Of a DNA stretch of 64,000 nucleotides, positions 4,518 through 60,478 are shown in pieces. Where the stretch lies: positions 288,001-352,000 of the forward strand of contig CAVOUE010000005.1 in NCBI GenBank assembly GCA_963699545.1, read 5' to 3'. Positions within the stretch are counted from its first letter, which is position 1; the number at the start of each line of letters is the position of its first letter. Origin of the DNA: Nitrospirota bacterium (GTDB lineage Bacteria; Nitrospirota; Thermodesulfovibrionia; Thermodesulfovibrionales; UBA9159). A program made the position numbers and the translations under genes. The notes below the pieces were generated by a model, which was not told where the DNA came from, did no database searches, and saw only the letters and a list, made by a program, of their open reading frames with translations.

Positions 4518-5951
4518 TCAAAACTCGTCCATCTCCTTTGCCATCTTTCTCTCCGACCACCAGTTGAAGAACTTGACCCCGAAAAAAGCTCCGACTACCA
4601 TGCCTCCGCCGTACAACCATCCGCTCGGATCACCTCCGGCCACCCTGATAAAGAAGGCGCCGATATTGCAGCCGAGGGCAGGTCTTGAACCAACTCCCAT
4701 CAATACGCCGCCGATAAGACCCCAGGCAATAAGTTCGCCTTTCGGCAGCTTGAACTTGAATTCATTGTTCATCCGGGCCATGACCATGGCGCCGAAAATA
4801 ATGCCGAACGACATCCAGAGTGCCGGATTACGCCATGGCTCAGGAAGTCCGTTATTGATTCCGAAGAATATGTTGTTGTGCATATTCCAGCCGAATTTCT
4901 CCAGTATCCACGCCCCGAACTGCCCTTCCTGACTGGTGATATACCAGTACCCGGGGTCAAAGACAGTGCCCTTGATCGAGACATCTGCTTTATGACCCAT
5001 CCTTACGAGAAGCTCTCCGAAGTTCGTGACACCGAACTTGATCTGCATTCCCTTCATCACAAAGATATGGAGTCCGGCAACAATACCGATCAGCACACCC
5101 ATCAGAGTGGTCCTCTTGGACGCCGTTATCATATTCCATAAACCGGCAAGTTCGTCGCCGAACCCCATCGTTGCCCCACCCTTCGCCTTCGCCCTCTTCT
5201 TCATAAAACCTTTTCTTATGTAAAAGACATAGATAACAGTAAGGAGTATCGCCGCCGGTATAAGGGCATTCAGCAGCGAGTCAGCAACAAAATACTTTGC
5301 CGCGCCCGGCAGCGCATCAGAAACAGCCTTTGTATGAGACAATTGCAGTGTCGGCTGATCCCATATATAGCCGGCCAGATAGGTGTCAAAGGATGAGGTC
5401 ATTTTATCGGCAGGAAGTCCTTTAGCCAGCGCTGAATCTACCCATTTCTGGGGGATCAGGAAGTTAAACCATTTGACATTAACAAACACCGCCTGTCCGA
5501 TACAGAGTCCAAAAAACGCGGCTAAGAAAGATGTCCCGTTACCCTCACCTATTTTGTAGAGAGAGCCCGATGCGCAACCACCGGCAAGGACCATCCCGAC
5601 GCCGAAGATCATTCCTGCTATCAAGGTATGTATGCCGAACGGAGCAGGATGGAAAGTGCTCATATTGGTTGAAGCAAGGGTTGCCTGAATAGTACTGAAA
5701 AATATAAGCGCCACCAGAATGCCGACCGCCATTCTCGGGACACCGGCAGCAAAAAGGTCTCTCGAAGCCGAGGCAAAACAGAACCTCCCGTATTGAAGCA
5801 TCATTCCGTAGGCAAATCCGAACCAGATGTACGCCACGAGGTACATGTAATACACGTTTGTCTTATAGTACATCACGCTGATAAGGATAAGGATGCCCGT
5901 GATCAAGAAAGCCCAGATTTGTCCTTTTTTGTTATTGTCTTGATCCGCCAC
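4518..5951 (-). CDS. YeeE/YedE sulfur-compound (thiosulfate) transporter family
   Basis: Multi-TM protein with three conserved Cys motifs RFCFAS, GGCASG, GCNIG. Confidence 0.9.
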   Translation of the reverse strand: MADQDNNKKGQIWAFLITGILILISVMYYKTNVYYMYLVAYIWFGFAYGMMLQYGRFCFASASRDLFAAGVPRMAVGILVALIFFSTIQATLASTNMSTFHPAPFGIHTLIAGMIFGVGMVLAGGCASGSLYKIGEGNGTSFLAAFFGLCIGQAVFVNVKWFNFLIPQKWVDSALAKGLPADKMTSSFDTYLAGYIWDQPTLQLSHTKAVSDALPGAAKYFVADSLLNALIPAAILLTVIYVFYIRKGFMKKRAKAKGGATMGFGDELAGLWNMITASKRTTLMGVLIGIVAGLHIFVMKGMQIKFGVTNFGELLVRMGHKADVSIKGTVFDPGYWYITSQEGQFGAWILEKFGWNMHNNIFFGINNGLPEPWRNPALWMSFGIIFGAMVMARMNNEFKFKLPKGELIAWGLIGGVLMGVGSRPALGCNIGAFFIRVAGGDPSGWLYGGGMVVGAFFGVKFFNWWSERKMAKEMDEF

Positions 5952-6128
5952 CTTTAAACCCTCCTCTTGAATAGTGAATGGGATACTTGACCCCGTATTT
6001 CCCTGTATATTTCGACCCCGCTCCCCCTGTTATGTGTAGTGCCTATTGTTATAAAAGGGTCCGGCAAAAGTCAATAAATAGGCCCATAAAAAACTAAAAT
6101 ATATTAACATTTGAAACCTTATACCTCT

Positions 6129-7844
6129 TCACCTCGCCCCGCTTTGGGACGGCGTGGGAGAGTGTGCCATATACAAGGCAACCACGGTCCTGAAACTGAA
6201 TACCCCTTCATAGGTATCCAATTCGCGGAGCAATCGGTATCCCTTCAGTCTGTCCCGCACGTTCCCCGGGAGGGTTTCCACCGGTCCTGCTGAAAGCACT
6301 ACCACAGGGATGTTCCCCTCGGAGCATCCATCGCAGTCACGGTAGTACCGGGGGTTTGCGTATTCCCACGTGAACCGGAGCGGTGAACTCGCAGCCTCTT
6401 CCCCGCGAGGGAAAAGCCCTGGATCATAATCGTAGATGATCCTCTTCCTGGTAAACAGATCAAGGAGAGGTACAGCGACCGCCGGGTTCAATGCGGCGTC
6501 CTGCTGCGGCAGCGTATAGACCCGCGCTGTTCGCCCCTCAAGACCGTCCAGCAATTCACCGGCCTTCGCCAGGTTCACCGTGCTGATCTTGCCCAGAAAA
6601 GGACGGTACGCCATGAGCGAAACGGTAAGAGATGAAATGAGGGCACACACCACGATAAACCGCCGCAGATCACTGTCCCGGATCTGTTGCAGCCCATAGG
6701 AAGCCATTAACGCGACCATCGGGAATATGGGGAGTGTGTAGCGTATGCGTCTCACCTGAAAAACGACCAGGAGGATGACCAGACAGCTTATGATCGTATA
6801 CCTGATGTCCCTTTTCCTGAAGGCCACATAAAGGGAAGAGAGGCTTGCGGCAGCAATAAAAGGATGCATCTGGAACAGGAACGTCGAGATAAAGCTCTCT
6901 CCCCATTTCGCAAGGCCGGGTCTTTGAAAGGTCGTGAGCAGTCTGAGTTGCTTCAAGAAAACTTCATGCTTCAGCAGAACCAGCGATCCTGCCATAAGCA
7001 GACCCACCCCCATGATGAGCACCGACCTCAGAAAATATTTCTTTCTTTCCTGCGAAGGGGCCTGAATCAGATACACCACCCCAATGACCGGAAGCACAGA
7101 GAGCATCGGCCATGCGGAATACTTGGAAAAGATGACGAGGAAAAGAGAAGCGGAGGCAAGTGCCATCATCCACCCTCCCTGTTCAAGGGCTCTCAGGAAG
7201 GTAAAGATCGTCAGTGTCAGGAAGAACATTGTCGGAACGTCCACCAGCATAAGGGGCACCTGGGAGAAGAGGTACGGCATACCCAAAAGAAGTGCTCCAC
7301 CCATCAGCCCGGTTTCCTTGTCCCACAGACATTTTCCGATGAGGTACGTGAGGACAACGGTCATCGAGAAGAGAATGGCTGTAAAGACCTGCGCATACAA
7401 CCTCACCTCACCAAAGATACGGAAGACCATTCCGTAGAGGAAAGGCATAAGGGGCAGGTCCGTCCAGCACTGAATCGCATTCCCCCATTCCCTGAAGAAA
7501 TACCCGACCCCGTACAGCTCCAGATGTTTTGCCTGGGTGAAATACCGGGACGCGTCAACGATGACCTCAGGCGCCTTCCACCAGGACGCAGCGACGATAA
7601 AGGAGGTGAAGAAAAGAACAAGGGACGGAAAGCGGGGGGAATAAGAGACCTTCAGGAAAAAAAGGGCAAGGCCGATGCTGGCAGAAAGAACGGCAAATAC
7701 GATTGCGGGGCTGATTCCGTTGAAGACCCACTGCCAGCTGGTGAGCCTGTTGTCATCCGCAGAGCGTAGTGCAAAAAGGAATATGAAGATCAGGAGGCTC
7801 AGGAGGGAAACAACAAGGAATGGCAGGCGGATAGTGCGGTTCAC
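6129..7844 (-). CDS. ArnT/PMT-like GT-C membrane glycosyltransferase
   Basis: Many TM helices; D..RY..QA loop, P L.P..Y, LVD.P, SKY motifs. Confidence 0.7.
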   Translation of the reverse strand: MNRTIRLPFLVVSLLSLLIFIFLFALRSADDNRLTSWQWVFNGISPAIVFAVLSASIGLALFFLKVSYSPRFPSLVLFFTSFIVAASWWKAPEVIVDASRYFTQAKHLELYGVGYFFREWGNAIQCWTDLPLMPFLYGMVFRIFGEVRLYAQVFTAILFSMTVVLTYLIGKCLWDKETGLMGGALLLGMPYLFSQVPLMLVDVPTMFFLTLTIFTFLRALEQGGWMMALASASLFLVIFSKYSAWPMLSVLPVIGVVYLIQAPSQERKKYFLRSVLIMGVGLLMAGSLVLLKHEVFLKQLRLLTTFQRPGLAKWGESFISTFLFQMHPFIAAASLSSLYVAFRKRDIRYTIISCLVILLVVFQVRRIRYTLPIFPMVALMASYGLQQIRDSDLRRFIVVCALISSLTVSLMAYRPFLGKISTVNLAKAGELLDGLEGRTARVYTLPQQDAALNPAVAVPLLDLFTRKRIIYDYDPGLFPRGEEAASSPLRFTWEYANPRYYRDCDGCSEGNIPVVVLSAGPVETLPGNVRDRLKGYRLLRELDTYEGVFSFRTVVALYMAHSPTPSQSGAR

Positions 7845-17080: not shown

Positions 17081-17973
17081 TCATTCTTCTCCCTCTTTCG
17101 ACAGGGGGTGCGCCTTATCATACACATCCATCAGATGAGTGATATCAAGATGGGTGTATCTCTGGGTTGTTGAAAGGGATGAATGACCAAGCAGTTCCTG
17201 GATCACCCTCAGGTCCGCGCCGCCCTGGAGCAGGTGGGTCGCAAAGGTATGCCTGAGGGTATGGGGCCCTATCCTGCTGTCAAGCAAAACCGCCCTCGCA
17301 TACTTTACTACTATACGTCTTACCCCCCTGTCTGTCAACCGTGTTCCGCTCCGGTTCAGGAAAAGGGCCCGGTCCTTTTTCTTCAGAAGAACTCTCTCGA
17401 TCGTATAGGTCTTCAGGGCCTCCACCGCTTTTTTTCCCATGGGAACGATCCGTCTCCTTCTTTCCCTTTCCCCCTCACCTTCACAAAACCCTCCCTTACA
17501 TTCAGGTCATCGCTGTTCAGACCCGCCAGTTCGCTCACCCTGAGACCGCTGGAATAGAGCAGTTCAAGGATCGCCCTGTCCCTTGCAGGGGAAAACCCTA
17601 TCCCTTCGGGCTTCTCGATAAGTGAGAAGACGTCATCAACGGTGAGGAATTTCGGGAGGAGCTTCGGCAGTTTCGGCGTATTCACCAGCTTTGCGGGATT
17701 CGATTTGATATAGCCTTCCCTCACGAGGAACCTGAAGAAGGACCTGATGCTCGCCAGTCTCCTGCCCGCCGTGCTCTTCTTCAGTCCGTCATTTATCTGC
17801 CCGGCAACGAACCCTCTCACGTCCAGCATCTCGATGTCCTCCGGGCGGGACTTTGTGTATGCAAAGAAGGCGTCTATGTCTTTCCCGTATGACCTGATCG
17901 TATGCTCCGACGCACCACGCTCTGTGGAAAGATATCTCAGGAACTCGTCCCTGTAAGCCGTATAGTCCTTCAC
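17081..17973 (-). CDS. xerC: Tyrosine recombinase XerC (one frameshift near 17460)
   Basis: [43 protein letters not shown]...TTQRYT; trmFO-xerC-hslVU synteny. Confidence 0.9.
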
Positions 17974-24644: not shown

Positions 24645-25547
24645 ATGTCAATGCGATCTTTCAAGGAAATCAAGCACGATTACCGCTTTGCCGAGGACGA
24701 CGAAAAACGACTCGCGGCGCTCCAACCCCTCATGGAAGAGCACGCTGATGAGATCATGAGCACGCTCAACCTCTGGTTCATCGGAACCAAGGGCGCCTCC
24801 ACGTTTTTTACGGCCGAGACGCTGAAGACCCACGTCTTTAATACGCAGAGGATGTGGTTTGCGAAGCTCTTTTCCGGAACCTATGATAACCGGTTTTATG
24901 AGCAACTGATCAAGATAGGCTCCGCGCATGTGCGCCGCAATGTCGATGTCCACTATCTGCAGCGTGCAGCAAATATCATCAAGAACTCCTGCACCGGGAT
25001 CCTCTCGAAGGTGGAAGTGCCGGTGGCGGAGATCACCAGCAACATCATCAGTGTCGGGAAGATCATCGAAATCAGCATGAGCGTGATCGTGAGCGCTTAC
25101 ATCGAGGAAGAGATGCGCCTCTACTCTCCTGTCTACAAAGTGAAGAGCGTCCTCATCAGCTTTTCGGAGCGGTTCTCCCAGGCCACCAATTTCATGCTGG
25201 TGTTTGCGCTCATCGGTCTGACGATTGGCGTTGTCTGGCTCTTCCTCCGGGATGTGGTCCATATCTTCTCGGGGGATATCGAGAAGGGCGTTATCTCTGC
25301 CCTCGGGTCGATGCTTCTCCTCTGGCTCATGATAGAACTTATGAACACGGAGATCTCTCACCTCAAAGGAGGCAAATTTCATGTAAGCATATTCGTAGGC
25401 GTTGCACTGGTGACGATGATCCGGGAGACGATGATCGCAACTCTCCGCCATGAACAACCGGAGTTCATTTACTACCTTATTGCCGGGATACTCGTCATAG
25501 GCTTCGTATACTGGATCGTCACGAAGACCGAAGACCGGCAGAAATAA
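24645..25547 (+). CDS. Protoglobin-domain protein with C-terminal PsiE-like membrane domain
   Basis: F...D..RL, W...LF.G.YD..Y...L..IG..HV; four C-terminal TM helices with L...EL..T and VAL...IRE. Confidence 0.75.
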   Translation: MSMRSFKEIKHDYRFAEDDEKRLAALQPLMEEHADEIMSTLNLWFIGTKGASTFFTAETLKTHVFNTQRMWFAKLFSGTYDNRFYEQLIKIGSAHVRRNVDVHYLQRAANIIKNSCTGILSKVEVPVAEITSNIISVGKIIEISMSVIVSAYIEEEMRLYSPVYKVKSVLISFSERFSQATNFMLVFALIGLTIGVVWLFLRDVVHIFSGDIEKGVISALGSMLLLWLMIELMNTEISHLKGGKFHVSIFVGVALVTMIRETMIATLRHEQPEFIYYLIAGILVIGFVYWIVTKTEDRQK

Positions 25548-26740: not shown

Positions 26741-27842
26741 TCACCGCGCCTGACCGGTAATATCCGTGATCACTTCAGGTGTTCCGAACATCGGGATTCG
26801 CTTCACCACGGTCCCCGAAAAATCGAGCGCATTCAGATCGATCTTCCGGAGATTCTGGTTCTCGTATGTTTTAAAGTAGAAAATACGATGAGTAATATCC
26901 CGGAAAGAGGCCCACTGGGTCGATTCTTTAAGAACGGTTTTCTTGTCCGCCGAAGTATCGGTCACCATGCCGATAGGGATATCGAACGTGTTCATGATAT
27001 GCAGGGCAAGATTCAGATTTCCCGCCGCATCAGGAGCTTTATCGGATAACAGGGTCAGAACGGCAAGCCGCACGAACCTGCTCGGCGGGGTGAGGTCTCC
27101 CCGGGAGGCCGAACATTCCGGACCCATGGCCCGTTGGCAGAAGGGTGCGCCCGAATATACGATACGGTTCGGGACTCTCGGTCTTTATGTCGAGATACTG
27201 CCGCAGGTTCGTCAGGTGCCAGGGGAATGACGGGGCATTCGTCATGATCCCGAGGGGATTGTCGTAGATGTTACACGTGCCGTTTTCATATTCAATAACG
27301 ATACAACCGCCGCTTGCATCATACACGATGAAATGCACGGGCGACGATATTTTCGTCACGGGGTCCGTATACTTGAAGACCTTCAGTTTCCTGATCTCAC
27401 GCCTCACCTCTTCCACACTTGCGAAGTTGCCGAGTATCCAATCTCCGACCATGCCCTGCGCGAGAGAGCGGCTCATCTCGCCCGGGGCAACATCTTGCCA
27501 TATCGTGTCTATCTCGAACCACAGCATACCGATGGCAAGCCCTTTCTCGTTCATACCGTCTGATACGCCGTAGTCCATTCCGAAGGCTGCTACGCCGACG
27601 TACCCATAGCGCGTGTTCCAGATCACTCCTTCTTTCCCATCAGGGGAAGGACTTGCATAGGCCTTGTTCCGGGGAACTACAATAGCATCGTATTTCATAT
27701 CCACCCCAAACTCCAATGAACGTCCTATGATCATCGATCCGTCGCCTGCTTTCAGCCGAAACACGGTGCAAGAGTCCGCAGGCAGAGGGGACAATCCCAA
27801 TAAGAACAAACCACCTATAAGCATCACCATTATTCTTTGCAT
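26741..27842 (-). CDS. Exported linear amide C-N hydrolase (choloylglycine hydrolase/penicillin V acylase family), frameshift near 27100
   Basis: Signal peptide then N-terminal nucleophile CT; GR.LEF, DGMNEKGL, MTNAP.F.WH..NL, PGD..PPSRFVR. Confidence 0.85.
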
Positions 27843-27995
27843 GGCACGCTCCTTTTGCATACTATTTCCTGATGCTCCCGGCGGGCGACCTCCCCTTTCC
27901 TGCCAGACTATAGCACAGGGGGACAGGCTTCGCAAGAATTTGTTCCTGCCTTGAAGGTTTGGCTCGTGAGTCCAAAGAAAAAGGTATAATAGTTC

Positions 27996-28169
27996 ATGGA
28001 AACCTGTCCTGTTTGCGAGCAACCTGTCGCTGCATGCATCTGCTGTCCCGAATGAGGGCATGTCTGCCTCCTGGATCTTGGAGAGCCCTACTGCCCGGTC
28101 TGTAAACCCGCGCCTGCATCGAACGACGATACAACCACCGGCACGCGGGAGCGGGAAGCCGGGCCATAA
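27996..28169 (+). CDS. Putative 57-aa Cys-rich zinc-ribbon-like protein with in-frame TGA (candidate selenoprotein)
   Basis: METCPVCEQPVAACICCPE*GHVCLLDLGEPYCPVCKP...; TGA at 28053-28055 in CPE(C) position; hairpin follows; TATAAT 5 nt upstream of ATG. Confidence 0.6.
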
Positions 28170-28231
28170 GCCTTGCGCAGGGAAGCCCTTCCAAGCTGAA
28201 TAAGAGGAGAACTTTTGTGGTATAATCTTTT

Positions 28232-29543
28232 ATGCATAGCAGGCGCATCTTACCCTTACTGCTTGTTACCTTTCTTCTCTCAATTGTCCCCCCTCTTTCT
28301 TCAAATGAAACTCCACGGGAGGTGATGGTCATCACCGTGGACGGCGTCATCAACCCTGTCTCATCGGAATATATCGGAAAAAGCATCAGGAAGGCAGTCA
28401 GCAAAGGGATGGAAGCGCTGGTGATAGAACTGGATACCCCGGGAGGTCTGGACACGTCGATGAGGAGGATTGTGAAAGACATTGTGAGCAGTGAAGTGCC
28501 GGTGGCGGTGTACGTTGCACCCAGCGGCGCACGGGCGGCATCTGCAGGGCGTATTCTTGACGCTTGCGGCCCATGTGGCCGCCATGGCCCCGGGGACCAA
28601 TATCGGCGCCGCACACCCCGTAGGCCTTGGTGAGAAAATGGACAAGACCATCGCCGAGAAGGCCACCAATGACGCGGCCGCGTATATCAAATCCCTGGCA
28701 GAAAGCAGGGGAAGGAACGCGCAGTGGGCCGAGAAGGCGGTACGGGAGAGCATATCCGCTACAGAAGGCGAGGCGTTGAAGGAACATGTGATCGACCTGG
28801 TGGAGAAGGATATCGCTTCTCTCCTTTCGGATATTGATGGCAGGAAGGTCAGGACCCCCTTTGGAGAGCGGACCCTCAGGACAAAGGACGCGAAGGTGGT
28901 CAGGGAAGAGATAAGCCTGAGACTGAGGATACTGAATTTCATCAGCGACCCCAATGTTGCCTATATCCTCATGCTCCTGGGGTTCTACGGTCTTTTCTTT
29001 GAGCTCACCAGCCCGGGCGCCATTTTCCCCGGCAGTGATGCAGGGGGCATATGCCTCATTCTCGCCTTTTACGCATTCCAGACATTGCCGGTCAATTACG
29101 CAGGTCTCCTCCTCATCATCCTGGCGGTCGTGCTCTTCATACTGGAGATGAAGATCGTCTCCCACGGGGTTCTGACCATCGGCGGGATCATTGCCATGAC
29201 CATCGGCTCCCTTATGCTCTTTGAATCTCCCGGACCCTTTGTGCGGCTCTCCCTTTATCTGGTCCTGCCCGCCGTCTTTATTACCGCCCTTTTCTTTTCG
29301 CCTCACCATCAGCCTTGCACTGAAGGCCCACAGGAGAAGACCTGTCACGGGAAAAGAAGAGCTCACCGGCATGGAAGGGGTCGCAAGAACGGACATCACC
29401 AGGGAGGGAGGCACGGTATCCCTTCACGGAGAGCTCTGGTCCGCCTTTTCAGATGATGCCATCGCAAGAAATGCAATAAGATAGTGGTCGAAGAAGTGAG
29501 GGATCTAAAATTGAAGGTACGCAAACAAAGGAGGGTAGTATGA
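28232..29543 (+). CDS. nfeD: NfeD membrane-bound ClpP-class serine protease (several frameshifts)
   Basis: LDTPGGL, PSGARAASAG, MAPGTNIGAAHPV, OB-fold tail G.V.LHGELWSA. Confidence 0.85.
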
Positions 29544-30318
29544 TGCCTTGTTAGACCACCATTTCTCATGACGGTGCTTTTTGCATTTTTCTTTGCCGCC
29601 TATATTCCTGTCGAGCGCGATCAAGATCCTCAAGGAATACGAGCGGGGGGTCGTCTTCAGGCTGGGCAGGATCATCCCTATCAAAGGACCGGGTCTTGTG
29701 ATCATCTGGCCCATCATCGACAAGCTCGTGAGGGTCAGTCTCAGAACAGTGACCTTCGACGTCCCGGCACAGGACATCATCACGAAAGACAATATCACGG
29801 TGAAGGTCAATGCGGTTGTCTACTTCAGGGTCATCGATCCTATAAAGGCGATCACTGCTGTCGAGGATTTTTTCTACGCAACGTCTCAGATTGCACAGAC
29901 CACTCTTCGCTCCATCCTGGGACAGAGCCAGCTTGACGACCTCCTCACCAAGAGGGACGAACTCAATTCAGAGCTCCAGAAGGTCATCGATTTCCAGACA
30001 GAGCCCTGGGGGATAAAGGTGTCTACCGTTGAGGTGAAGAACGTTGACCTTCCTGTTGAGATGCAGCGGGCCATCGCAAAACAGGCAGAGGCTGAGAGGG
30101 AAAGAAGGGCAAAGGTCATCCATGCAGACGGCGAATATCAGGCATCACAGAAGCTTGCAGATGCAGCACAGATAATGGCAACACAGCCGATGGCGATGCA
30201 GTTGAGGTACCTTGGGACCCTGACTGAAATTGCGAGTGAAAAGAATTCAACGATAATATTCCCTTTGCCCATCGACCTGATTAAACCATTGTTCGACAGG
30301 CTGGAGAAGAAGGACTGA
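29540..30318 (+). CDS. SPFH/stomatin (slipin) family protein (5' end disturbed by indels)
   Basis: [37 protein letters not shown]. Confidence 0.9.
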
Positions 30319-34718: not shown

Positions 34719-35955
34719 ATGGAGAAAAAGATCGTTGTCACGGGCATAGGAGTTTTATCGCCTATCGGCATAGGCAGGAATAGTTACTGGGAAGCCCTGC
34801 TGCTGGGGAAACCAGGATTTAATCCTATCACCCTCTTTGACACATCGCCGTTTAATGTGCGTATCGCGGGCGAAATAGGCGATTTCGATCCTGCTGAATT
34901 CCTCGGCAAGAAAGGACTTCGCGAACTGGACAGGAGCGCGAGGCTGATATGCTCGGCCGCAAAGCTTGCCATTGATGATGCCCATCTCCAGGTGACGGCT
35001 GAAAATACCCATTCTGTGGGAGTCTCTATTGGAACAACCTTCGGGAGTCTCCACAGCATCTCAGAGTTTGACCGATCCGGTCTCATTGAAGGCCCGAGGT
35101 ATGTAAACCCGTCCCATTTCCCCAATACGGTCCTTAACTCGCCCGCGAGCCGGGTATCGATACGTTTTCAAATAAGGGGCTTTAATACGACCATTTCCAC
35201 GGGATTCTGCGCTGCCCTTGACGCCGTCTCCTATGCGTGTGACTTCATCAAATTGGAGAGGGCGAACGTCGTTCTCGCTGGGGGAGTTGAAGAGCTTTGC
35301 GAGGAAACCTTCCTCGGTTTTTATACCCTCGGGTATCTCTCGGGGATTGATGCCTCACCTCCTGTGAGCTGTCCGTTTGATGCGAGGAGGAATGGGATAA
35401 TTCTTTCCGAGGGTGCAGCGATACTGGTGCTCGAAGAAGTTCAGCATGCTCTGAACAGAGGTGCGGAAATCCTGGCAGCAGTAAAGGGTTGTGGAAACGC
35501 CTTTGACGCTTCGGCGAACGGGGATTTCGGGCACGGGAGAAGAGGTCTGAGAAACGCCGTCACTCGTGCACTGAGCGATGCAGCCCTTTCTCCAGAGGAT
35601 ATAGACTATATTTGCGCCGGTGCCAATTCCACAAAAGAACTTGACAGAGCGGAGAACTGCGGTGATCAAAGAGGTCTTCGGCAACCATGCCTATTCGCTG
35701 CCTGTGAGTTCGATAAAATCCATGGTGGGAGAGTCCTTCTCCGCCTCAGGTGGGCTGTCCCTGGCAGCTGCGGCGGGGGTCCTGCACAGCGGATTCATTC
35801 CTCCCACGATACATTATGAGCAGAGTGACCCTGAATGCGACCTCGATTATGTCCCCGGTGCTGCGAGACGGAAAGAGGTCAAGAATGTTCTTGTGCTCGC
35901 GTCCGATCCTTACGGGAATAACTCAGCCATCGTGCTGGGCAGATATGAACGGTGA
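34719..35955 (+). CDS. Ketosynthase-like protein lacking catalytic His residues (CLF-like); frameshift near 35650
   Basis: FabF fold; TGFCAA Cys region; HGTST replaced by GANST; GH replaced by GE. Confidence 0.8.
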
Positions 35956-58768: not shown

Positions 58769-60478
58769 ATGGCAAAAATAGCGATTGATCCCATCACACG
58801 GATTGAAGGACACCTGAGGATCGAGGCACAGGTGGACGGCGGCAAGGTCACTGATGCATGGTCATCCGGCACCATGTGGCGAGGCATCGAGATCATTCTG
58901 AAAGGGAGGGATCCGAGGGAGTGCTGGGCGCTCACCTCGCGAATATGAGGGGTCTGAACAACGGTCCACGCACAGTGCTCCGTGAGAGCCGTGGAAAATG
59001 CCTTAGGGATTACGATAACCGATAACGCAAGGATCATCAGGAACATCATCAATGGTATTCAGTATGTTCAGGACCATGTAATACATTTCTATCACCTGCA
59101 CGCCCTTGACTGGGTCGATGTGGTCAGCGCCCTGAAGGCCGACCCCGCAAAGACAGCGGCCCTTGCCCAGTCCATTTCCGACTGGCCGAACTCTTCACCG
59201 ACTTACTTTAAGGCGGTCCACGGAAAGGTGAAGACGCTTGTAGAGAGCGGTCAGCTCGGCATCTTTGCCAGCGGATACTGGGGACATCCGGCATACAAGC
59301 TTCCGCCTGAGGCGAATCTCATGGCGGTTGCCCATTATCTGGAAGCCCTGGACTGGCAGCGTGATGTAATAAGGATGCAGGCGATGCTCGGCGCCAAGAA
59401 CCCCCACCCGCAGACGTGGCTGGTGGGTGGTATGGCCATCCCCATTGACCCCAATAGTCAGAATGCCATCAACGCAGGAAGCATCGCCCTCATGAAGGAC
59501 CTGGCGAAGAAGGCCCTTGCCTTTGTTGAGAAGGTCTATATCCCCGATCTCCTCGCGGTTGCGTCCTTCTATAAGGATTGGGCGGCGATCGGTGGCGGTG
59601 TGGGGAATTATCTCTCCTACGGCGAGTTCCAGAACGACAATGTGAGCAATACCACAAACGTCTGGCTTCCTGGTGGAGTCATCAGGAACAAGAACCTGGC
59701 CAAGGTCGAGCCCGTTGACCAGAAGCAGGTCACTGAAGACGTTGCACATGCCTGGTATAAATATGCGGACGGTGATGACAAGGCAAAGCATCCATGGGAC
59801 GGCGAGACCACCCCCAACTATACCGGTCCGAAACCGCCCTATGAATTCCTTGATACCAATAAAAAGTACACCTGGGTCAAGGGTATCCGGTACAACGGAA
59901 TGTCCACCGAGGTGGGGCCGCTTTCGAGGATGCTCATCGCGTACGCATCGGGACATAAGCGTGTCAAAGAAGTTGTCGGGCTTGTGCTCAGCAAATTGGG
60001 CGTCGGGCCCGCCGCATTGTTCTCTACCCTTGGCCGCACCGCTGCGAGGGGCATAGAGACCCTTGTGACCGCAGAGATGCTCCCGGTCTGGATCGATGAC
60101 CTGGCGGCCAAGATCAAGAGCGGAGATATTCGTATCCATAATAACGAGAAGTGGGACCCGTCCACCTGGCCGAAGGAGGCAAAAGGGTTCGGCTTCCACG
60201 AGGCACCCCGCGGTGCCCTTGGCCACTGGGTAGTGATAAAGGACGGTAAGGTCGCCAACTACCAGTGTGTCGTCCCGGGCGGGTGGAACTCTTCCCCCAG
60301 AGATGCAAAGGGTCAGAGGGGCCCGTACGAAGCAGCTCTTATGGACACCCCGATCAAGGACCCCAATAAGCCGCTGGAAGTCTTGAGGACGATCCATTCC
60401 TTCGACCCGTGCATGGCGTGTGCGATCCATGTAGTAGACACCAACATGGATGAGATCATAAAAGTCAGGGTGGTATAG
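58769..60478 (+). CDS. Group 1 [NiFe] hydrogenase large subunit with two in-frame TGA codons in the L1 motif
   Basis: [22 protein letters not shown]...RG.E..L.GRDPR...RI*GV*TTVH (TGA 58946 and 58955), in frame with the rest; [11 protein letters not shown]2 [10 protein letters not shown]. Confidence 0.9.

Follow-up and report, generated by a model that had tools for sequence, protein, structure and literature searches.

When a short, cysteine-rich open reading frame (ORF) contains an in-frame TGA at a position where a cysteine is expected, does the TGA end a peptide, or is it decoded as an amino acid? Here, we address this question for a small gene in a 64,000-nucleotide stretch of a Nitrospirota genome (GenBank assembly GCA_963699545.1, contig CAVOUE010000005.1, positions 288,001 to 352,000 of the forward strand), referred to below as the window. 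Read through the TGA, the gene encodes a 57-residue protein, METCPVCEQPVAACICCPE-U-GHVCLLDLGEPYCPVCKPAPASNDDTTTGTREREAGP, in which U marks the recoded residue. The protein contains eight Cys residues (C4, C7, C14, C16, C17, C24, C33, and C36), and the TGA provides an extra slot. A preliminary description, made from the nucleotide sequence, had read the gene as encoding a new zinc-ribbon protein containing either selenocysteine (Sec) or a Cys encoded by UGA, and the features from which it started, i.e., the ATG, the length, the eight Cys residues, the TGA within a CPE-slot-GH motif, and the TAA end, are all present in the sequence (Table 1). We found that this gene belongs to a real but unnamed gene family in which TGA and Cys codons alternate at one codon. 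We conclude that UGA is very probably recoded in a real gene and suggest that Sec is the likely inserted residue.

To identify relatives, we used a word-indexed search, a profile search of 1.84 billion cluster representatives, and a profile search of 90% clusters. The first returned two small proteins, one with Cys and the other with Trp at the slot, whose conservation spans the entire domain on either side of it; the second returned 31 matches at E ≤ 0.001; and the third returned 99 matches of near-equal length together with 14 longer ones. Together with a genome scan, this defines a family of 120 database proteins and 49 genome loci, and the existence of homologs in which conservation continues past the TGA agrees with the preliminary description, according to which a lack of homologs would have spoken against its reading. 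The conserved domain corresponds to codons 1 to 40 (27996-28115) of the window gene, and the remaining tail is unconserved. Among 105 aligned small members, C4, C7, C16, C24, and C36 are invariant, while C14, C17, E19, C20, G21, H22, G29, C33, P34, V35, and P38 are conserved in at least 90%. Cys occupies the slot in 113 of the 120 database proteins (109 by pattern and 4 by inspection); P0027 and P0121 have a one-residue deletion near the slot, and P0032 is a fragment or an ORF that begins just past it. Among the near-length matches, family members are labeled "hypothetical protein" in every source seen. Neither Pfam nor NCBIfam provides a family for the small protein or its relatives; scans of the protein, of P0001, P0003, P0004, and P0016 (E ≤ 1), and of 30 members (E ≤ 10, among the 25 of 48 families listed) gave only weak matches to the zinc-knuckle regions of MetRS, PolD, and rubrerythrin. 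In the ESM Atlas, P0004, a natural Cys homolog, falls only into unnamed clusters, with scores of at most 0.88. One source names P0074 and P0077 rubredoxin/rubrerythrin; this name was rejected because only two to three of 30 members match the corresponding models, with E ≥ 0.012 and well short of the cut-offs, and there is no match in Pfam. Gene callers are blind to the window gene, which has 19 codons before the TGA and no start codon after it; together with the missing Pfam and NCBIfam matches, this fits the earlier claim of a new protein that is invisible to such programs.

The 49 loci are mostly from metagenome-assembled genomes labeled Nitrospirota/Thermodesulfovibrionia or Thermodesulfobacteriota/"Deltaproteobacteria." Based on in-frame translation, TGA is present at exactly the same codon in four of them (L001, L006, L007, and L019), all labeled Nitrospirae, Nitrospirota, or Thermodesulfovibrionales, while the slot codon is TGC or TGT in the other 45. 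Thus, homologs of both kinds that the preliminary description had proposed to look for exist. Because one of the two scan patterns demanded C or W at the slot and was unable to match TGA forms, the fraction of four in 49 understates the share of TGA. The window gene and these four loci, referred to as the five TGA forms, are independent sequences because many of their synonymous sites differ. Over the 10 pairs among them, nucleotide differences at the first, second, and third codon positions number 35/12/101 in the 18 codons before the TGA, 12/28/85 in the 20 codons after it, and 110/116/111 in the unconserved tail. The third-position bias on either side of the TGA argues that one frame is under coding selection throughout, and its persistence downstream runs counter to the stop of conservation at the TGA that had been named as a refutation. 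Moreover, H22, C24, C33, and C36, the downstream putative metal-ligand residues, are retained in all five TGA forms. In four of the five, codons +1 to +20 contain no in-frame ATG, GTG, or TTG, so that the downstream half cannot stand as an ORF of its own. As the stop of 29 of 66 long ORFs, TGA is also the commonest one in the window, and in L006, L007, and L019, the TGA-form gene itself finishes with a second TGA. TGA is, therefore, still used as an ordinary stop, and recoding must be local. Signs of damage are seen in three Cys-form copies, with a TAG within the conserved domain of L015, a stop just ahead of that domain in L047, and loss of the frame past codon +9 in L049.

The preliminary description had also proposed a hairpin resembling a selenocysteine insertion sequence (SECIS) after the TGA. 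The lower stem consists of GGGCA (28056-28060) paired with TGCCC (28092-28096), and the upper stem of 28066-28071 paired with 28080-28086, with a bulged A at 28084, closing an apical loop of 8 nt, UGGAUCUU (28072-28079). All five TGA forms can fold the apical hairpin CCUCC-UGGAYCU-GGGGG; in the window gene, three synonymous changes shift the register, giving a 6-bp stem with the bulged A and the 8-nt loop. Among the TGA forms, the loop has 7 to 8 nt, has UGG as its first bases, and lies 16 nt after the UGA, and the apical hairpin alone has a folding energy of −7.6 to −10.6 kcal/mol. For bacterial SECIS (bSECIS) elements, PMC13188914 lists a loop of 3 to 9 nt, an upper stem of 4 to 16 bp, a G in the first two loop positions, a distance of 16 to 37 nt from the UGA, and an energy of −7.5 kcal/mol or lower, and the hairpin lies within these limits in five of five TGA forms. 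On average, 4.6 of 5 upper-stem pairs form in TGA forms versus 3.2 of 5 in Cys forms.

Better evidence than hairpin energy is an island of synonymous-site conservation in codons +2 to +6. In the TGA forms, synonymous differences amount to 0/42 in these codons versus 104/206 in the other conserved codons. The corresponding values are 1752/3142 versus 8919/17268 in the 45 Cys forms and 94/160 versus 463/822 in the 10 Nitrospirota-type Cys forms. Consistently, island differences occurred in every one of 5000 random subsets of five Cys forms and in every one of the 252 subsets drawn from the 10 Nitrospirota-type ones. We read the island as an RNA-level constraint that is specific to the TGA forms, bearing in mind that these are five related sequences whose pairs are not independent.

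A second gene in the window, for a [NiFe] hydrogenase large subunit, contains two in-frame TGAs. Starting from ATG 58769, its N-terminal motif reads R-I-[TGA]-G-V-[TGA]-T-T-V-H. With the TGAs read as Cys, the protein aligns over residues 3 to 554 to the Allochromatium vinosum enzyme (3myr_B; E = 1.6e-215), and both TGAs land on the Cys residues of RICGVC, which are N-terminal Ni ligands. The gene is continuous end to end only when both TGAs are decoded, and gene callers would place its start at GTG 58982. The C-terminal motif is DPCMAC, with Cys kept. Classical [NiFeSe] hydrogenases have Sec in the C-terminal motif, and the window enzyme shows the reverse pattern. Judging from the alignment, two TGAs at both ligand codons of an otherwise intact hydrogenase cannot be accidental. 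The small gene had been presented as a second, independent sign of UGA recoding in this organism, and the alignment of both hydrogenase TGAs with the Cys residues of RxCGxC agrees with this; equally, the first hydrogenase TGA is followed by GGG, as is the TGA of the small gene, in line with the shared context noted earlier. The hairpins after the two hydrogenase TGAs resemble those of shuffled sequences (z = 0.04 and 0.30).

What would the recoded residue do in the small protein? The Cys pattern contains five putative ligand pairs (C4/C7, C14/C16, C17/U20, H22/C24, and C33/C36), and the pattern of two CPxC-type knuckles, some 10 to 15 residues apart, expected of a zinc ribbon is present. Among solved structures, the best profile match, a marginal one, is to the C-terminal zinc ribbon of archaeal RNA polymerase subunit B, whose CxxCGH-x(9-11)-YCPVCG motif aligns with C17-x-x-C/U20-G-H ... 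Y-C33-P-V-C36. The match covers only the second half of the domain, and neither the first CPVC knuckle nor the CxCC cluster of the small protein has a counterpart in the polymerase ribbon. This alignment suggests that the slot corresponds to the second ligand of the first knuckle in a Cys4 ribbon and, thus, that the slot residue is most likely one of the four ligands. We suggest that the module of ~40 residues would be of a two-metal zinc-ribbon type, built from the eight Cys residues, one His, and the recoded residue, with C17, U20, C33, and C36 as predicted ligands of the Cys4 ribbon and C4, C7, C16 (or C14), and C24 forming a putative second site. According to this model, UGA codon 20 would not act as a stop; instead, the hairpin, with its apical loop 16 nt downstream, would recruit SelB with Sec-tRNA, and Sec would be inserted where relatives carry the second Cys of the C-P-E-C-G-H knuckle. 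The selenolate would then probably bind a metal or serve as a redox-active partner to C17 in a CxxU motif.

Altogether, we consider a new zinc-ribbon-type selenoprotein family the likely explanation, although several observations weigh against it. The fold of the whole window hairpin, at −19.4 kcal/mol, has a z score of −1.51, and 18 of 200 shuffled sequences fold as well or better; across the five TGA forms, z ranges from −1.51 to +0.29 (−1.26 to +0.29 for 48-nt segments). A count of covariation among the five TGA forms found no two-sided pair changes. In the same alignment, 47 of 50 pair cells form, a paired fraction that 390 of 500 shuffles also reach. The lower stem is largely imposed by the Gly-His ... 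Cys-Pro codons, and six Cys forms (L008, L017, L018, L022, L031, and L034) likewise have five of five upper-stem pairs. Rfam gave no match in the region (E ≤ 10) or in the whole window (gathering thresholds). Of the hairpin proposed earlier, the stems, the G-containing loop, and the fit to bSECIS limits thus stand, while its energy is like that of shuffles and covariation, suggested as a check, did not appear. At the protein level, the best profile matches in the PDB, 3qqc_A and 4qiw_B (E = 0.0025 and 0.0061), are marginal; AlphaFold2 models have a mean predicted local distance difference test score of 67.9 (30 sequences) or 70.1 (105 sequences) and almost no secondary structure; and Foldseek searches of the PDB returned no match for the first model and one at E = 2.4 for the second, so that the fold is not established. 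The slot shows some tolerance, being Trp in two database proteins (P0002 and P0017), Arg in P0012, and Ala in P0033. Up to RPEPKK, P0002 is nearly identical to the TGA form at L007, and translation of a TGA with a TGA=Trp table may account for its Trp. The five TGA forms are few, related, and of two sequence subtypes, and pair counts among them are, therefore, not independent. The window contains no tRNA gene, and none of the 57 ORFs scanned has a SelA, SelB, or SelD domain. Finally, at least three window genes are split by frame changes, indicating that the assembly is not error-free. These include genes for a XerC/D-type integrase (17081-17970, minus strand) and a beta-ketoacyl synthase (34719-35955, plus strand) as well as nfeD, and they are either products of assembly indel errors or pseudogenes, which bears on the trust placed in single-base calls.

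The alternative that best survives, even though we consider it unlikely, is that UGA is recoded as Cys by a selC* tRNA-Cys with a UCA anticodon, acting with SelB or a SelB paralog at the same hairpin. In that case, the protein would not differ chemically from its Cys homologs, and the TGA would serve only as an expression checkpoint. All sequence results are equally compatible with this scenario, and nothing within the window discriminates between Sec and Cys; the original proposal of a zinc-ribbon-type selenoprotein or UGA-Cys protein is supported by the homologs, the TGA and Cys forms, and the maintained frame. selC* tRNA-Cys genes, some with an opal (UCA) anticodon (PMC7609411), are described in Thermodesulfovibrio and in contigs probably from Nitrospirae (PMC5389517 and PMC7609411), making insertion of Cys at UGA a live alternative in this lineage and a further point against Sec. 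Likewise, the hydrogenase TGAs at the N-terminal Ni ligands, with Cys kept in DPCMAC, would be unremarkable if read as Cys. On the other hand, PMC5389517 states that selC*-bearing genomes, including Thermodesulfovibrio, have the complete Sec machinery, and arrangements of selC and selB in Nitrospirae are cited in PMC13188914. A UGA aligned to Cys and followed by a hairpin is the standard signature of Sec (PMC13188914). The window, which contains neither selC* nor any other tRNA gene, provides no positive support for Cys insertion.

A true stop, which would leave a peptide of 19 residues or a decaying pseudogene with residual downstream similarity, is in our view very improbable. TGA is the commonest stop in the window, split genes exist there, and damaged Cys-form copies occur at L015, L047, and L049. 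However, five assemblies share the TGA despite many synonymous differences, the third-position bias persists for 20 codons, the four downstream putative ligands are retained in every TGA form, and nothing would explain a synonymous island that only the TGA forms show. Still less probable is leaky read-through independent of a Sec system, in which a near-cognate Trp or Cys tRNA, depending on context, would give a low yield of the full-length protein. The Trp residues at the slot of P0002 and P0017 could be taken in its favor; however, we infer that both are possibly TGAs translated under a TGA=Trp table in a metagenome pipeline, Trp could not take the place of a metal-ligand Cys retained by 113 of 120 relatives, and the conserved RNA island argues for a dedicated signal. 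A sequencing or assembly error that hides a TGC or TGT can be dismissed almost entirely, despite the split genes, because the errors in the window are frame changes rather than substitutions, four independent assemblies share this TGA, and two more TGAs occupy Cys positions in the hydrogenase.

How does the proposed Sec-containing protein compare with known selenoproteins? The family is not among the 119 selenoprotein families and subfamilies of a 2026 review (PMC13188914, Table 1). By description, its nearest counterparts there are the FmdB zinc-ribbon family (UxxU), a dual-CXXC small protein (NF041197), and a CC/Se-motif family (NF041239). The FmdB-family putative regulatory protein (TIGR02605) is a small CxxC-knuckle protein in which Sec replaces a knuckle Cys, as proposed here, and, like the small family, it is predicted by the criterion of Sec/Cys pairs only and has no known function. 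In contrast to FmdB, which has two Sec and four Cys residues, the family described here has one Sec (CxxU-G-H), eight Cys residues and a His, and a link to TadA. FmdB is unrelated in sequence: TIGR02605, as well as NF041197 and NF041239, did not match P0001, P0003, P0004, and P0016 (E ≤ 1) and were absent among the 25 of 48 families listed for 30 members (E ≤ 10). Compared with the bSECIS model (the bSECISearch consensus and the Escherichia coli fdh genes, as treated in PMC13188914), the element is the same in being a hairpin within the coding sequence straight after the UGA, and it has a 7- to 8-nt loop with G at loop position 2 followed by a second G and an upper stem of 5 to 6 bp. It differs in that the 16-nt spacing is at the lower limit of the range (16 to 37) and in lacking covariation, an energetic distinction, and an Rfam match. 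It is also unlike the bSECIS examples in lying on an apparently leaderless mRNA, in which only 57 nt separate the UGA from the 5' end. The selC* tRNA-Cys/SelB* system of Mukai et al. (as reported in PMC5389517 and PMC7609411) occurs in the same lineages and would use the same sites of UGA plus hairpin; in contrast to the Sec system, it yields Cys. A full-text search of the literature found no paper that joins a zinc ribbon with UGA-encoded Sec, and the family's absence from the literature is only as well founded as that search. Elsewhere in the window, 4518-5951 (minus strand) encodes a YeeE/YedE sulfur-transport protein (PF04143) in the Cys form, GGCASGS; a Sec form of this family (GUxSG) is listed in PMC13188914.

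A lead to function comes from the longer homologs. In all 14, the small domain is N-terminal and followed by a TadA deaminase domain (PF00383; E = 1e-15 to 4.5e-8), and the sources name two of them tRNA adenosine(34) deaminase TadA and two tRNA(adenine34) deaminase. Among the genome loci, the small domain is fused in frame to tadA in L003, L004, L011, and L016. In L021, a Cys-form gene of 45 residues (5722-5859, plus strand) overlaps tadA (5856-6305) by ATGA and is translationally coupled to it. The Cys-rich N-terminal extension of Nitrospirota TadA proteins (e.g., P0036-P0048 and P0018) is the same domain, 55 to 71% identical over 65 to 96% of the window protein. However, these extensions are fused and have Cys at the slot throughout, whereas the window protein is free-standing, has the TGA, lies away from tadA, and has unrelated neighbors. 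Because of the fusions, we suggest that free-standing forms probably act together with the tRNA adenosine-34 deaminase or its tRNA substrate. A complex prediction for the TadA of L021 and the adjacent small protein gave a score of 0.00, which speaks neither for nor against binding. Going further, we offer a speculation that we regard, taken as a whole, as doubtful. Sec may be a zinc-ribbon ligand in a free-standing accessory module of TadA, which would be the first selenoprotein tied to tRNA editing; selenium or redox status might thereby be coupled to inosine-34, by way of a leaderless mRNA with a SECIS ~60 nt from its 5' end; and such a module, together with the two-UGA hydrogenase, might point to an unrecognized Nitrospirota selenoproteome missed by annotation and family catalogs.

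Other gene neighborhoods differ between lineages. In the Thermodesulfobacteriota/"Deltaproteobacteria" loci, conserved neighbors are mostly on the opposite strand and encode a UDG-family protein (16 loci), an HD/OB-fold protein (27 loci), and an epimerase (24 loci); a radical-SAM/DUF3641 neighbor is found in 18 of these loci on mixed strands. In the TGA-form loci L006 (~5122-5770), L007, and L019 (both ~6001-6700; all plus strand), yajQ (DUF520) is next on the same strand, and upstream on the other strand are a dCTP-deaminase-like gene, pyrF, and an anthranilate synthase gene. Clustering of neighbors across the 49 loci found no cluster in common with the window, and the CBAH hydrolase and nfeD/SPFH genes next to the window gene were dropped as functional partners because no neighbor is shared with other loci. 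At 24645-25547 (plus strand), the window encodes a protoglobin domain fused to a PsiE-family membrane domain, and a PsiE-family gene follows the small gene in L002.

The small gene sits within an intergenic gap of 389 nt. A perfect TATAAT had been reported exactly 5 nt before its ATG and is indeed found there; a TATAAT-like hexamer lies 5 to 9 nt upstream of the ATG in most of 14 Nitrospirota-type loci examined. Because the box and the ATG leave no room for a Shine-Dalgarno sequence, we suggest that the mRNA is probably leaderless and that the TATAAT is its probable promoter. A consensus promoter scan of the plus strand found no full sigma-70 (−35/−10) promoter and no terminator, and the −35 element at the small gene is weak. 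A promoter-like site on the minus strand (27935..27907) lies on the hydrolase side of the gap. nfeD looks like a second leaderless gene: its TGgTATAAT (28218-28234, plus strand) ends 5 nt before ATG 28232, and it lacks a Shine-Dalgarno sequence. In the best explanation, the small gene is real and independently transcribed.

Table 1. Coordinates of the small gene, its proposed signals, its neighbors, and the hydrogenase gene in the window
Feature	Position	Strand	Details
Cys-rich coding sequence of 57 residues, read through TGA	27996..28169	+	ATG 27996-27998, TAA 28167-28169
In-frame TGA, codon 20, proposed Sec codon	28053..28055	+	Within C17-P-E-U20, then G-H
−10 box TATAAT	27985..27990	+	5 nt upstream of ATG; read directly
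SECIS-like hairpin	28056..28096	+	Starts directly after TGA; 16 nt from UGA to loop
Synonymous-site conservation island, codons +2..+6 CAT GTC TGC CTC CTG	28059..28073	+	5' arm and first two loop bases
Linear-amide C-N hydrolase (choloylglycine hydrolase family)	27039..27842	-	Divergent neighbor, left edge of gap; PF02275, E = 2.2e-45
nfeD	28232..29456	+	Downstream neighbor; split into two frames (28232-28633, 28491-29456)
SPFH gene	29581-30318		After nfeD
[NiFe] hydrogenase large subunit	58769-60478	+	TGAs 58946-58948, 58955-58957

Taken together, our analyses support an uncataloged, putative selenoprotein (or UGA-Cys) family of the zinc-ribbon type in Nitrospirota whose link to TadA had gone unnoticed. 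If confirmed, the small gene would independently show that UGA is decoded at Cys positions in this organism, which bears on its unusual hydrogenase. It would also add a selenoprotein family for which there is no Pfam or NCBIfam model, and would place Sec in a probable metal-binding ribbon instead of a thioredoxin-like redox site. Moreover, the recurrent fusion to TadA provides a testable functional lead for a domain that has so far been called "hypothetical protein."

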